Position numbers and translations under genes: made by a program. Shown here one piece after another: positions 4,101 through 7,528 of a stretch of DNA of 64,000 bases (position 1 is its first letter; each line of letters starts with the position of its first letter). The stretch comes from an uncultured bacterium (GTDB lineage: Bacteria; Patescibacteriota; JABMPQ01; CAVVCK01): assembly GCA_963746775.1 (NCBI GenBank), contig CAVVCK010000001.1:83050-147049 (forward strand), in the 5' to 3' direction. A model generated the notes under the pieces. That model did not search any database, was not told where the DNA came from, and saw only the letters and a program-made list of their open reading frames with translations.

Positions 4101-5380
4101 TTATAGGCAGGTAATATTCCCCTTTTTCTAGCCAAATTGCAAGATTCTTTTTCTCCTTCTTCTTTAATAAATTTCATTATCCTTTTAATTAAAACAAGTG
4201 ATTCATTGCTATTATAAGGAATACCTAGTCTATATAGACCCTGAGCATAACCCATAATGCCAAGACCTATTTTCCTTGTTTTTAATACATTCTCTCTAAT
4301 TTGAGGAAGTGGATAATTATTTAGATCAATCATATTATCCATAAAATGTATAACTGTCTTAACAGTTTTTTTCATATCATCCCAATCAATTTTTCCATTT
4401 TTTATGTGCCCCGGAAATATAATCGAACCTAGATTACATGATTCATAGGGAAGCAAGGGCTGCTCACCACAAGGATTAGTTGCTTCAATTTTACCAAGCT
4501 GCGGGGTTGGATTATCTTTTTCCAATTTATCTAAAAAAATAATTCCTGGATCAGCGCAAGACCAAGCTTTTTCGACAATTAAATTAAAAATCTTGCTGGC
4601 TGATAATTTTTTTACCTTCTTTCCATTCCTAGGATTTATTAAATAATAATCCTCATCACGCCTTACTCTTTCCATAAAATCAGCTGTCACACCAACAGAT
4701 ATATTAAAATTTTTCAATTCAGATGAACCATTCTTTAAATTAATAAATTCCAAAATATCTGGATGATCAATATTTAAAATTCCCATATTTGCTCCATGCC
4801 TTTTACCTCCCTGCAAAACTCTTGATAGCGCTTGATCAAAAGATTTTACATAATGAATAGGTCCAGCAGCAATATTAGGAATATTTTTTACTTTATCACC
4901 TTTAGGCCTAATACTAGAAAAATTAAAACCAGTACCTCCATTATTTTGCTGAATAGTGGCTGCGTTTGCTAAACTTCCGAAAATTCCTTCCAGAGAATCT
5001 TTAATTGGTACTACAAAGCAGGAAGAAAGTTGTCCTGTATTATTATTGCCGGCTTCAAATAAAACTCTACCCCCTGGCAAAAATTTTAAAGAGGCCATTA
5101 TTTTGTAAAATTTTTCCGTTGTCTCATCTAAAATTTTATTCTTACTCTTCCTTTCGGATTTATCTAAATAATTACTATCAGCTGAAGCCATAAACTTAGC
5201 TACTCTATAAAACATTTCAGCCGGGGTCTCAATTGGATTGCCCTTCTTATCGGTTTTAGTATACCTTTTATTAATTACCTCAATGGCATTTTCGGATAAT
5301 GTTGGCACAATTTCTTCTGTGATTTTATTTTTTTTGGTCATTTTATATATTAAGATAAATTTTTTAATAACAAATCCCAT
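1106..5380 (-). CDS. nrdJ: Tandem-fused double class II (adenosylcobalamin-dependent) ribonucleotide reductase, NrdJ-NrdJ. Two complete catalytic cores plus a C-terminal tail with a Cys4 zinc ribbon.
   Basis: 1424 aa. Core 1 is about aa 14-610 and core 2 about aa 631-1195. Each has the N-terminal Cys motif (SSCFVVPI / SACFALPI), the thiyl-radical motif [12 protein letters not shown](S/T)CNLGS, [34 protein letters not shown] and a YRDG end. The C-terminal 230 aa (ATIGKSGGF ... [26 protein letters not shown]) follows core 2 only. The start may instead be the Met at 5341 ([10 protein letters not shown]), which removes the 31-bp overlap with the upstream gene. Confidence 0.85.
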   Translation of the reverse strand: [1424 protein letters not shown]

Positions 5381-6144
5381 GAATTTTTTATATCTTCTTT
5401 TTCTAATATTTCTAAACTAAGAAAATTATTATAATTAATTTTTTTAAGAAAAATAATAAACTCTTCTAAATTTAAATCTCCTTTTTTCTGAAAACCAAAA
5501 TGGGCTTGACCATTTTTTATAGCATTATGCAAATGAATATTTTTAATACTATTTTTATTGTTTTTTAAAAACTTTAAAAAACTATCATTATTTTGCACAC
5601 AATGTCCAACATCTATAGTAAAATTTATATCGGGAATAAAAGATTTAATTTTTGATAATTCGTTAAGCAACACAGGATATGATATCTGAGTTGTTTTCTT
5701 TAAAGAAACATTTTCTATTGCAATGCTCATTTTATTTGCTGCATATTTTATTATTTGTTGAAAATTTTCTATAAATGTTTTTCTAACTTCGTTTTTACTT
5801 AAAAATAATGGATAAGATCCAGCATGAATAGTAACTACCTTTGACCTTAATCTAACTGCAATATCTATTGTCTTTTTTAAAATATTAATTGATGCTTTGT
5901 TAACCTCTTTATGAGTAGATATTAATGTTAAATTTATAAAAGGAGCATGAATAATTATTTCATAATTAGAAAGTTTCTTTTTTATCCATTCTATTTCCCT
6001 AATATTAAGATCATTTTCTTCTAACCATATTTCTATAAAATCAAGACCGTTAAACTTGTTTAAAAAATTAATATATTCTTCCCATTTATCTTTATTATAG
6101 GATGTAAGATTTAGGAAAAGTCCTTTTTTAAATAATCTGCTCAT
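5350..6144 (-). CDS. Xylose-isomerase-like TIM-barrel protein resembling AP endonuclease family 2 (endonuclease IV/Nfo-like)
   Basis: 264 aa. IIIHAPFINL, IAIENVS, IDVGHCVQNND, IHLHNAIKNGQAHFGF are roughly collinear with the metal-ligand motifs of Nfo/TIM-barrel sugar-phosphate isomerases. Sits inside the nrd operon. Confidence 0.55.
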   Translation of the reverse strand: MSRLFKKGLFLNLTSYNKDKWEEYINFLNKFNGLDFIEIWLEENDLNIREIEWIKKKLSNYEIIIHAPFINLTLISTHKEVNKASINILKKTIDIAVRLRSKVVTIHAGSYPLFLSKNEVRKTFIENFQQIIKYAANKMSIAIENVSLKKTTQISYPVLLNELSKIKSFIPDINFTIDVGHCVQNNDSFLKFLKNNKNSIKNIHLHNAIKNGQAHFGFQKKGDLNLEEFIIFLKKINYNNFLSLEILEKEDIKNSWDLLLKNLS

Positions 6145-6145
6145 T

Positions 6146-7528
6146 TTATTTACAATATCTTTTAAATAATTCTGGTGAAAATATTTTATCTCTAATATGA
6201 GATTTTAAAAATCTTGCATTGAACTTATCTTTTCTTTCTTTTTCAACCCTCTGCTCTAAAATATGTCTAAATTTTTCTATTTTTTTAATTGTGTCTTTAT
6301 CACCACCATAATACACAGAAAAACAGGGTGATATTAAATTTTGATATAAACCAAGATAAAAATGACCATTATGAATTATATAAGATGGTAACTCAGCAAT
6401 AACTCCACCACTAACTTCGTTTTGTGGAGAAACTTGATGTTTATATTTCTCTCCCAAAAAATTCTGTTGTAAACAAGTTTTATAAGGAAATTTTTTAGCT
6501 CTAAAATCTTTCATAATAACAACTTCTTCCTCATCTTTTTTAAGCTGCTCTTCAAAATCATCTCCGATCATACTATCCAATATTGTTGGAGTAAAAAAAT
6601 GTATGCTAACATCAAAATCCGTACCCTTAGCTTTAAATTTTTGACTAAATATATCGGCTTTGCCCCCCCCTAATAACTTTTTAAATTCTTCCATTCTACC
6701 AAAAAAAATATTTCTTTCTTCTTCAGTGAAAATGTTTGAACCTTTCAATTTTTTCCATAAATTTTCTTCAAATTTATTTTCTTCCGCAACTACAATTAAA
6801 TCAATATCTGAACTGCCAGTTTCATCTAATAATTTTCTTATATTATAAAAAGGACCATAGCTCATAGAACCACCAACAATTACACTATCCGCCAAACCTT
6901 CCATCAGATTTGTTAACTCTTTTATTTTATAAAATCTCTCTAAAGTGCCTTCAACACTTTCAATAAAACTCGGTTTTCTTTTTCCCAACTCTTTTCCTTT
7001 GCTTATTTTAAGAAAATCTGGCAAACTTGGTTTTAATTCAGTTAAAATGTCTATTAATTTTTCACCAAAAACTTTGATATCTATGTTTTCCTTGATATGG
7101 CACATATAAACTTGCTCAAGAAAACTTGCTAACCAGGCCTTTATTAATATTTCATGATAATTATGCAAATCAAAATGTTTTACTTCATTTAATAAAGAAG
7201 TAAATCTATTTTCCCAATTAGAAACATCAACATCTTTTAATATCTCATCAAAATTCTTTTTAAATCTTTCTATCCCCATAAACTCGTCTACCATCTTACC
7301 TTCTGTATAAACAAAATTAGCATCGCTATTTAAAAATTCTCTCTCAATATTTCTTAATTCATCTATATTTTTACTTTCTGTTATTTTCTTTAAGAGAGTC
7401 AATGCTTCTTTCTCTTCTAAGAGTCCTTGAAAATATAAATCATGGATATTTATCTTTAAATTTTGCTTTAAATTTTCAAAACTATCCAAAGATTCAATTT
7501 TTTCATTAGTTGTTTCAAATTCAATCAT
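6146..7528 (-). CDS. Pol-beta-superfamily nucleotidyltransferase-domain protein of unknown specificity (divergent). Embedded between RNR genes.
   Basis: 460 aa. Central VGGSMSYGPFYNIRKLLDETGSSDIDLIVV is a G[GS]...DxD nucleotidyltransferase motif with an insertion. A later acidic site is TDFDVSIHFF. Flanked by a 200-aa helical N-terminal region and a 150-aa C-terminal region with no recognisable family. Confidence 0.5.
   Translation of the reverse strand: MIEFETTNEKIESLDSFENLKQNLKINIHDLYFQGLLEEKEALTLLKKITESKNIDELRNIEREFLNSDANFVYTEGKMVDEFMGIERFKKNFDEILKDVDVSNWENRFTSLLNEVKHFDLHNYHEILIKAWLASFLEQVYMCHIKENIDIKVFGEKLIDILTELKPSLPDFLKISKGKELGKRKPSFIESVEGTLERFYKIKELTNLMEGLADSVIVGGSMSYGPFYNIRKLLDETGSSDIDLIVVAEENKFEENLWKKLKGSNIFTEEERNIFFGRMEEFKKLLGGGKADIFSQKFKAKGTDFDVSIHFFTPTILDSMIGDDFEEQLKKDEEEVVIMKDFRAKKFPYKTCLQQNFLGEKYKHQVSPQNEVSGGVIAELPSYIIHNGHFYLGLYQNLISPCFSVYYGGDKDTIKKIEKFRHILEQRVEKERKDKFNARFLKSHIRDKIFSPELFKRYCK

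Follow-up and report, generated by a model that had tools for sequence, protein, structure and literature searches.

A conserved nucleotidyltransferase–TIM-barrel gene pair inside an NrdR-boxed class II ribonucleotide reductase operon of a patescibacterium, and its possible part in cobamide processing

The TIM-barrel enzyme CbiR hydrolyses adenosylcobalamin (AdoCbl) to adenosylcobinamide-phosphate (AdoCbi-P) and alpha-ribazole, and it was discovered through its adjacency to cobamide genes (PMC7733943). Tam41, a CDP-diacylglycerol synthase and nucleotidyltransferase of the Pol-beta fold, takes CMP from CTP and attaches it to the phosphate group of phosphatidic acid (PMC11646218). These two enzymes are the nearest curated family and the best fold match, respectively, of two proteins whose genes lie side by side in DNA from an uncultured member of the Patescibacteriota: ORF264, a TIM barrel, and ORF460, an unclassified nucleotidyltransferase. 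The 64,000-nucleotide stretch that carries them (GenBank assembly GCA_963746775.1, contig CAVVCK010000001.1, positions 83,050 to 147,049) is referred to here as the window, and coordinates are positions within this 64-kb window unless another locus is named. In the window, the pair is embedded between paralogues of nrdJ, the gene for class II ribonucleotide reductase (RNR). We found that ORF460 and ORF264 constitute one conserved two-gene cassette of Patescibacteria (candidate phyla radiation, CPR) and DPANN-like archaea, for which we tentatively consider a role in cobamide processing.

Loci encoding relatives of ORF460 were collected by three routes (exact-protein look-ups, a one-genome-per-species scan and a metagenome scan), and their open reading frames (ORFs) were searched with hidden Markov models for the transferase, the barrel, recurrent neighbours and NrdJ1. 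This yielded 53 distinct transferase loci with flanks of 4-10 kb, 43 of which had enough downstream DNA to judge. We found an ORF264-type barrel directly downstream on the same strand at 16-17 of the 43 loci, mostly at a spacing between a 3-nt overlap and a 12-nt gap (at two loci the called ORFs overlap by ~200-250 nt). The neighbour was a DEDDh exonuclease of the RNase_T type (PF00929, PolC/KapD-like) at 12 loci, 11 of them with convergent genes, and a HIT protein (PF01230) at nine, seven of them on the same strand; five loci had none of the three. This nearly constant association with one or other of three unrelated phosphoester hydrolases points to a make-and-break nucleotidyl cycle, and we judge it reasonably probable that ORF460 and ORF264 together form and cleave a nucleotide-phosphate linkage in a small molecule that is phosphorylated.

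The partner type was clade-specific in a neighbour-joining tree of the transferases, and barrel-linked loci spanned several separate clades, including the most divergent one and an archaeon. The presence of barrel clades throughout the tree suggests that the barrel is probably the ancestral partner and was displaced in some clades. Most hosts belong to the Patescibacteria (Buchanan-, Morani-, Shapiro-, Kaiser- and Paceibacteria); one is a DPANN-like archaeon, and a few host metagenome-assembled genomes are labelled Gammaproteobacteria or Bdellovibrionota. RNR lies beside the cassette at a single informative locus of the 43, the window itself. The initial annotation of this DNA, made from the letters alone, had held that neither enzyme is a normal component of nrd operons, and indeed RNR is absent as a neighbour from every other family locus. 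It had also proposed a search for recurring RNR linkage among homologues, the opposite outcome being common housekeeping enzymes without such linkage. The linkage does not recur, but the homologues are not common housekeeping enzymes either: they form a rare, unannotated family found mostly in Patescibacteria and DPANN-like organisms. Because the RNR linkage is non-recurrent, the real unit is the transferase-hydrolase cassette rather than an RNR accessory.

The loci with other partners showed arrangements of their own. At the exonuclease loci (L005, L007, L009, L010, L017, L018, L019, L025, L026, L042, L046 and L049), the 3' end of a convergent DEDDh gene mostly overlaps that of the transferase gene by 3-52 nt, across very different flanks. 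At L027, L028, L034, L035, L052 and L062, a ~145-aa HIT protein with the motif HLHIHGIPR replaces the barrel directly downstream. Locus L013 carries, in order on one strand, genes for a HIT protein, a barrel that is a close orthologue of ORF264 (63% identity), and a B12-binding radical-SAM protein, with a further B12 radical-SAM gene upstream; with this locus, transferase-barrel, transferase-HIT and HIT-barrel pairings all occur. At L012 (6039-8786), a 363-aa PEP-utilizer swivel (phosphohistidine) protein and a His_Phos_1 phosphatase-family protein, in place of the transferase, are encoded upstream of the barrel, and a phosphotransfer enzyme may here substitute for the nucleotidyl-transfer enzyme. 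A sugar-1-phosphate nucleotidylyltransferase precedes the transferase at L010, and the cassette adjoins HicAB toxin-antitoxin genes at L001.

ORF460 contains the motif VGGS(219-221)MSYGPFYNIRKLLDETGSSD(241)ID(243)LIVV, in which residues G219, G220, S221, D241 and D243 are invariant in all 26 aligned homologues. The GGS...DxD motif reported initially therefore stands; the 12-aa insertion described with it does not, as the GGS-to-GSS spacer is 16 aa, and the GGS-to-DxD spacer is long, at 19 residues. Further invariants among the 26 members are R231, R278, S295, D341 and R446. As positions for the third carboxylate we considered D341 and also D292, which is kept in most members. With a pI of 5.7 the protein is acidic, and many of its arginines are invariant; residues 1-90 are variable, and they are missing in members of ~390 aa.

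No Pfam or NCBIfam family matched ORF460 above threshold, in agreement with the initial remark that the large domains flanking its core match no nameable family. Matches to NTP_transf_2 (PF01909; 12.3 bits, cut-off 21) and Polbeta (PF18765; 13.4 bits, cut-off 26.9) were below threshold, although they map exactly onto the DxD segment, and such weak matches were seen in just four and two of the 26 members, respectively. A word-indexed search of 5.8 billion proteins returned 27 relatives, and when 1.84 billion cluster representatives were searched with a profile, 412 were returned at E <= 1e-3; the family comprises ~400 clusters at 50% identity. None of these relatives bears an informative name, cluster members being nameless or 'hypothetical', and a limited literature search found no paper describing the family or its pairing with hydrolases.

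AlphaFold2 models of ORF460 had pLDDT values of 90.1 (full length) and 92.1 (residues 177-460). The model comprises an N-terminal helical domain (about residues 14-209), an alpha-beta-alpha-beta core in which GGS follows strand 1 and DxD lies on strand 2, and a C-terminal domain that is rich in beta structure. When compared with PDB structures using Foldseek, it matched mostly Pol-beta-fold transferases. The best match of the core was Tam41 with CTP-Mg (7ecd; probability 0.99, E 4.6e-3), followed by CdnD, 3c18 (a 'nucleotidyltransferase-like protein'), TUT7, kanamycin nucleotidyltransferase, OAS1, AadA, ANT(4'), SAS1 and DncV. The invariant GGS...DxD residues, the model core and these mostly Pol-beta-fold matches support the nucleotidyltransferase fold that had been proposed. 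Judged by the model, ORF460 appears to be a Pol-beta-like nucleotidyltransferase and a new, distant branch of that superfamily; its family is unannotated, and both folds of the cassette are already known.

A profile of the ORF460 family searched against PDB sequences returned designed helical repeats only. We also considered a LicD/fukutin-like phosphotransferase, on account of a resemblance in the motif, and rejected it, as there was no Pfam or fold match. A subgroup of transferases of ~550-565 aa (P0068, P0073, P0078, P0079, P0089 and P0129; positions 6004-7668 of L023) shares a conserved C-terminal extension of ~180 aa that had no Pfam match. L023, the one long-form locus examined, has none of the three hydrolases as a neighbour, and its extension may therefore represent a partner that has become fused. 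One 712-aa relative bears a methyltransferase domain.

ORF264 matched PF01261 (6.4e-27; 95.3 bits, threshold 31.1) over residues 33-252 of 264, and E38, H66, H107, E144, D178, H181, H204, H215 and E245 are invariant; its initial description as an AP endonuclease family 2 barrel with a His/Glu/Asp ligand set was correct. A single-sequence search delimited a subfamily of 26 proteins at E <= 1e-10, and a profile search enlarged it by ~14 remoter relatives (E below 1e-20). CbiR (NCBIfam NF041277) was the best curated family for 20 of 20 subfamily members. ORF264 itself scored 68.1 bits against it (8e-19; cut-off 105), and no member (0 of 20) attained the cut-off. The runner-up families of ORF264 were L-ribulose-5-phosphate 3-epimerase (43 bits) and endonuclease IV, or Nfo (32 bits); the two Nfo models TIGR00587 and PRK01060 gave 32.3 and 24.1 bits, respectively, and their cut-offs of 333 and 244 were not reached.

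In an hhalign comparison with E. coli Nfo (probability 55%), to be taken as a lead and not as a test, seven ORF264 invariants fell on H109, E145, D179, H182, H216, H231 and E261. H66 was matched to Nfo H69 by inference only, and the position of Nfo D229 is variable in the ORF264 family. Sugar isomerases and epimerases of the barrel superfamily use the E-D-H-E subset only. The invariant histidines of ORF264 beyond this subset thus favour a multi-metal phosphoesterase, and we regard ORF264 as a putative multi-metal phosphodiesterase. The nearest solved structure by sequence is MJ1311 (PDB 3wqo; E 4e-14, residues 47-259); a literature search on MJ1311 and Art22 gave nothing useful.

More distant barrels occur in other settings. 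One of them, P0200 (33% identity), has no transferase neighbour, and several haloarchaea hold distant relatives (~25% identity). On the Natribaculum luteum megaplasmid NZ_CP095398.1 (51483-52265; L079), the barrel gene closes a phnGHIJ(KL)M carbon-phosphorus lyase operon at its 3' end; at this one locus examined, the barrel has the position where bacteria have the cyclic phosphodiesterase PhnP, which suggests that this PF01261 branch acts on ribose-linked phosphodiesters. A tblastn search of the barrel against plasmids recovered no CbiR, but only distant sugar-epimerase-like genes and haloarchaeal barrels that end phn operons.

The genes of the nrd region all lie on the minus strand (Table 1), and the ORF listing and Pfam bear out both the gene order first read from this DNA, nrdR-nrdJ-nucleotidyltransferase-TIM barrel-nrdJ-nrdJ, and its tight coupling. 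nrdR and nrdJ1 overlap by 23 nt, and ORF460 and ORF264 sit between the nrdJ paralogues with gaps of at most 10 nt: ORF460 begins 9 nt after nrdJ1, and a gap of 1 nt parts it from ORF264. The end of ORF264 runs 31 nt into the fused nrdJ gene as listed; with the second methionine as the start, which gives the better alignment with NrdJ1, an 8-nt gap lies between the two. cobA/btuR lies 202 nt downstream of the fused gene. A simple scan predicted no terminator within the operon; the sole minus-strand terminator-like hairpin that it detected (10008-9977) ends the upstream scpA-scpB genes, and the promoter falls just downstream of it.

Sites bound by NrdR are made up of a pair of partly palindromic 16-bp boxes with a 15-16-bp linker and conserved C4, A6, A8, T9, T11 and G13 (PMC13584703). 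Upstream of nrdR we found two 16-bp boxes that are separated by a 16-bp linker and overlap the promoter, the best of the region. Box 1 shares 14 of its 16 bases with box 1 of E. coli nrdAB as listed in PMC13584703. The 20-nt pattern common to both boxes is unique in the window, with 0.16 matches expected by chance. These sites support the control of the operon by NrdR that the initial annotation had assumed.

Table 1. Genes and regulatory sites of the nrd region, in window coordinates.
Feature	Position	Strand	Basis
nrdR, 157 aa	9279..9752	-	Pfam Zn_ribbon_NrdR 1.8e-20 and ATP-cone 1.1e-22
nrdJ1, 587 aa, predicted adenosylcobalamin-dependent class II RNR, no C-terminal tail	7538..9301	-	Ribonuc_red_lgC 8.8e-137
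ORF460, unclassified Pol-beta-fold nucleotidyltransferase (predicted), 460 aa	6146..7528	-	motif, model and Foldseek
ORF264, AP-endonuclease-2/xylose-isomerase-like TIM barrel, putative multi-metal phosphodiesterase, 264 aa	5350..6144	-	PF01261
nrdJ2::nrdJ3 fusion, 1424 aa, two class II RNR bodies	1106..5380	-	Pfam; likely true start 5341
cobA/btuR, ATP:corrinoid adenosyltransferase, 175 aa	376..903	-	PF02572 2.1e-63
DUF4430 (transcobalamin C-terminal-like) lipoprotein, clipped by window edge	1..348	-	PF14478 on 149-aa product
sigma-70-like promoter TTGACA-16-TAAAAT, upstream of nrdR	9944..9971	-	11/12 hexamer matches
NrdR box 1, CCCATATATATAGTAT	9950..9965	-	5/6 highly conserved positions
NrdR box 2, CCACAAGATATAGTAT	9918..9933	-	6/6 conserved positions (C4, A6, A8, T9, T11, G13)

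Three complete class II RNR bodies are encoded in the operon: NrdJ1 and the two in the fused protein, of which the second, last body alone carries a TSCPD and Zn-ribbon tail. NrdJ1 belongs to the adenosylcobalamin-dependent NrdJ_Z family (TIGR02504; 678 bits, cut-off 400). The three paralogues are mutually 48-50% identical, two of them being fused head-to-tail, and all retain the thiyl-cysteine motif N-x-C-G-E-Q. This three-paralogue arrangement is unusual, and the proteins may form a hetero-oligomer.

The cobA/btuR product scored slightly below the NCBIfam cobA cut-offs (TIGR00708; 163.5 bits vs 167.75). We read the genes beyond the window edge from the same contig in another assembly (L077, 10001-14852): cobA/btuR is followed by genes for the DUF4430 lipoprotein, a DUF6580 membrane protein, dCTP deaminase (dcd, assigned above its NCBIfam cut-off), a YdjM/NlpC protein and fpg, the last being five genes downstream of cobA. 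DUF4430 (PF14478) is a domain found at the C-terminus of transcobalamins (PMC4350170). The lipoprotein and the DUF6580 protein are a possible B12 uptake pair; a literature search on DUF6580 gave no papers. By its predicted gene content, the locus is a combined unit for B12-dependent deoxynucleotide synthesis, B12 adenylation, and B12 binding or uptake, plus dcd. Elsewhere in the window, the minus strand at 17955-20279 and 23804-25072 encodes a CysD-like PAPS_reduct protein beside an EF-Tu-like GTPase (a CysN-like pair) and a Pif1-family helicase, which are somewhat unexpected for a very small AT-rich genome.

Conservation of the cassette elsewhere, CbiR as the nearest family and the extension of the operon into cobA/btuR-DUF4430-dcd were all absent from the initial annotation. 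With the nearness of ORF264 to CbiR and the genes cobA/btuR, DUF4430 and dcd in the operon, its general idea of 'cofactor handling' becomes a specific cobamide hypothesis. In this genome, the cassette would have been recruited into the NrdR-controlled nrdJ-cobA-DUF4430-dcd operon. ORF264 would cut the phosphoribosyl bond in the lower nucleotide loop of a cobamide, as CbiR does, to give cobinamide-phosphate. ORF460 would then use an NTP to turn cobinamide-phosphate into NDP-cobinamide: this is the CobU/CobY step, here performed by an unrelated fold with Tam41-like chemistry. We hold it tentatively, at less than an even chance, that the pair processes scavenged cobamides for NrdJ in this way, with a CbiR-like cut first and an NTP-dependent reactivation of the resulting cobinamide-phosphate second. 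That a cobamide is the substrate of the pair is likewise possible, with a confidence that stays clearly short of even.

The nearest curated family of the barrel and the content of the operon are two independent lines that lead to the same cofactor, and the B12 radical-SAM genes at L013 are a third, weaker one. Furthermore, Tam41 is the best fold match of ORF460, so its nearest structural analogue nucleotidylates a phosphomonoester; by analogy, guanylylation of cobinamide-phosphate would be the same type of chemistry.

Several observations weigh against a cobamide substrate. An odd context was the reason for choosing the window, and this selection makes the neighbourhood look more significant than it otherwise would. 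At 68 bits against a cut-off of 105, ORF264 is no CbiR equivalog, and all Foldseek matches of ORF460 to PDB structures are weak, none being below E = 1e-3. We detected no cobalamin riboswitch, nor any other Rfam family, in the window. Homologues of cobA, DUF4430, DUF6580, dcd and nrdJ are absent from the 4-10-kb flanks of all other loci; with the exception of L013, the B12 linkage is thus as non-recurrent as that of RNR. The DEDDh (12 loci) and HIT (nine loci) partners are no obvious cobamide enzymes. Finally, no CobS, CobT, CobC or CobU was revealed by a scan that covered every listed ORF of 110 aa or more between 376 and 26707 and ten ORFs further on, which leaves the completion of loop re-assembly unexplained. 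A literature search for Patescibacteria with cobamide and RNR gave no papers.

We therefore weighed the cobamide scheme against other explanations of the same cassette. In one, which we consider rather unlikely, the substrate has no relation to either B12 or RNR: the product of the transferase would be some small molecule that contains a nucleotide, such as a dinucleoside polyphosphate, an NDP-X conjugate, or an oligonucleotide signal of linear or cyclic form, and the neighbouring hydrolase would degrade it, the nrd-cobA position being a lineage-specific accident of genome compaction. This explanation accounts best for the swapping of partners, since the transferase is paired with one of three unrelated nucleotide-phosphoester hydrolases at 38 of the 43 informative loci and the clade-specific partner looks like non-orthologous displacement of a single role. 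It is also consistent with the lack of B12 and RNR genes near the other loci, with CdnD, OAS1, DncV and a small alarmone synthetase among the Foldseek matches, and with the PEP-utilizer protein in the transferase's place at L012 and the sugar-1-phosphate nucleotidylyltransferase before the transferase at L010. However, it does not explain the place of the pair among cobamide-dependent and cobamide-handling genes in a tight, NrdR-boxed operon, nor L013, and CbiR as the closest curated family of every barrel member stays a coincidence. Moreover, genes for sensors or effectors of the kinds usual in nucleotide signalling were not found alongside, and there were no PADLOC matches.

Repair of nucleic-acid 3' ends is a further alternative, coherent in itself but unlikely. 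The barrel would be an AP endonuclease, 3'-diesterase or cyclic phosphodiesterase, ORF460 would fill in or extend the cleaned 3' end of DNA, as in base-excision repair, or of RNA/tRNA, and co-expression with RNR would tie repair to the deoxynucleotide supply. The metal site of the barrel is compatible with this, as eight of nine endonuclease IV ligand positions are kept (seven by the tentative alignment above, with H66/H69 inferred) and Nfo models are matched by 10-18 of 20 barrel members; yet the Nfo score of ~32 bits compares with cut-offs of 244-333 and with 68 bits for CbiR, and the Nfo D229 position is not conserved. Aprataxin is an end-processing HIT enzyme, and the alternative partners include aprataxin-type HIT enzymes and PolC/KapD-like DEDDh 3'-5' exonucleases. 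Because 11 of the 12 exonuclease genes are convergent, however, these are not co-transcribed with the transferase, which counts against a repair function. TUT7, Cid1, Pol mu and a tRNA-processing enzyme are among the fold matches of ORF460, and fpg lies downstream in the same gene series; on the other hand, the matches to Pol X lie close to noise (0.08 probability for Pol mu), ORF460 is acidic, and Pfam and Foldseek revealed no helix-hairpin-helix, 8-kDa or thumb-like domain in it.

A dedicated RNR accessory function, in which the pair would act on NTP/dNTP pools or allosteric effectors, or nucleotidylylate NrdJ or NrdR, draws support from the place of the pair between nrdJ paralogues under NrdR boxes, from dcd downstream, and from an unusual three-paralogue NrdJ set that could need extra factors. 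We consider it highly improbable: RNR adjacency was seen at one of 43 informative loci, while bacteria and archaea alike keep the cassette in surroundings that are unrelated, and no similarity to a known RNR accessory family was found. Our findings thus correct an attractive but unsupported idea. An accessory, mobile or anti-phage defence insertion in the nrd operon, also raised initially, is hardly credible: among 47 window genes compared, that for ORF264 is the poorest in G+C (0.215; z = -2.3), HicAB genes adjoin the cassette at L001 and its neighbourhoods vary widely, but the ORF460 gene is of ordinary composition (G+C z = -1.0, GC3 z = -0.8), the 1-9-nt spacing lies in an intact operon, the best PADLOC-DB E-values (0.044 and 0.0031, at 13-15 bits) are not meaningful, no relative occurs among 2.9 million viral contigs, no integrase, transposase or repeat flanks the pair, and a recent horizontal insertion was rejected because the composition evidence is weak.

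If the cobamide scheme is correct, ORF460 would join CobU and CobY, without homology to either, as the third cobinamide-phosphate nucleotidyltransferase to have evolved independently, and would add a new enzyme type to cobamide salvage, and the scheme would explain how a B12-dependent RNR is supplied with usable cofactor in ultra-small symbionts. The hosts of the ORF460 family live by scavenging. It is conceivable, if doubtful, that genome-reduced CPR/DPANN symbionts that are unable to make B12 more generally re-tailor scavenged cobamides for AdoCbl-dependent RNR by this new two-enzyme route. More broadly, ORF460 would found a nucleotidyltransferase family always paired with a reversing hydrolase, be it a TIM barrel, a HIT protein or a DEDDh enzyme. 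Should the cobamide scheme prove wrong, the cassette would still be a well-delimited target for work on 'dark matter' gene function.

Among described systems, CbiR (Akkermansia muciniphila Amuc_1679) shares with ORF264 the AP-endonuclease-2 TIM-barrel superfamily and conserved His/Asp/Glu metal ligands. By score, ORF264 belongs to a separate subfamily (68 bits vs the 105-bit cut-off). Of CbiR homologues, 80% lie among cobamide-related genes (PMC7733943), as ORF264 does here; unlike CbiR, however, ORF264-type barrels have cobamide genes nearby at one or two of ~20 loci (the window and, arguably, L013). CbiR neighbours cobDQ, cbiB, cobT, cobS or cobU, whereas the recurrent neighbour of ORF264 is an unclassified nucleotidyltransferase. 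Endonuclease IV has the same superfamily fold but is longer than ORF264 (285 aa vs 264 aa). MJ1311, the TIM barrel of Methanocaldococcus, is uncharacterised and so offers no mechanistic information for ORF264.

The proposed reaction of ORF460, NTP plus cobinamide-phosphate to NDP-cobinamide, is that catalysed by the adenosylcobinamide-phosphate guanylyltransferases CobY and CobU, and it is the step after a CbiR-type cleavage. The folds of these enzymes (MobA-like Rossmann and P-loop) are unrelated to that of ORF460 and there is no sequence match, so the likeness would be one of function. Tam41 is, like ORF460 by its predicted fold, a Pol-beta enzyme, and it places an NMP on a phosphomonoester (PMC11646218). 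Its structure (7ecd) aligned with the ORF460 core over 134 columns at 19% identity and a TM of about 0.27, and the Tam41/Mmp37 family (PF09139) was not listed for any of the 26 ORF460-family members in scans down to E = 1. Tam41 keeps one of the three carboxylates of the fold (PMC11646218), whereas ORF460 keeps an invariant DxD, and the flanking domains of the two proteins differ. Kanamycin nucleotidyltransferase/ANT(4') (Foldseek probability 0.82-0.85), AadA, CdnD/DncV (0.44-0.66 for CdnD), OAS1 and TUT7 have a GS...DxD core, as does ORF460. Compared with these Pol-beta transferases, ORF460 alone combines that core with a unique N-terminal helical domain of ~200 aa and a beta-rich C-terminal domain.

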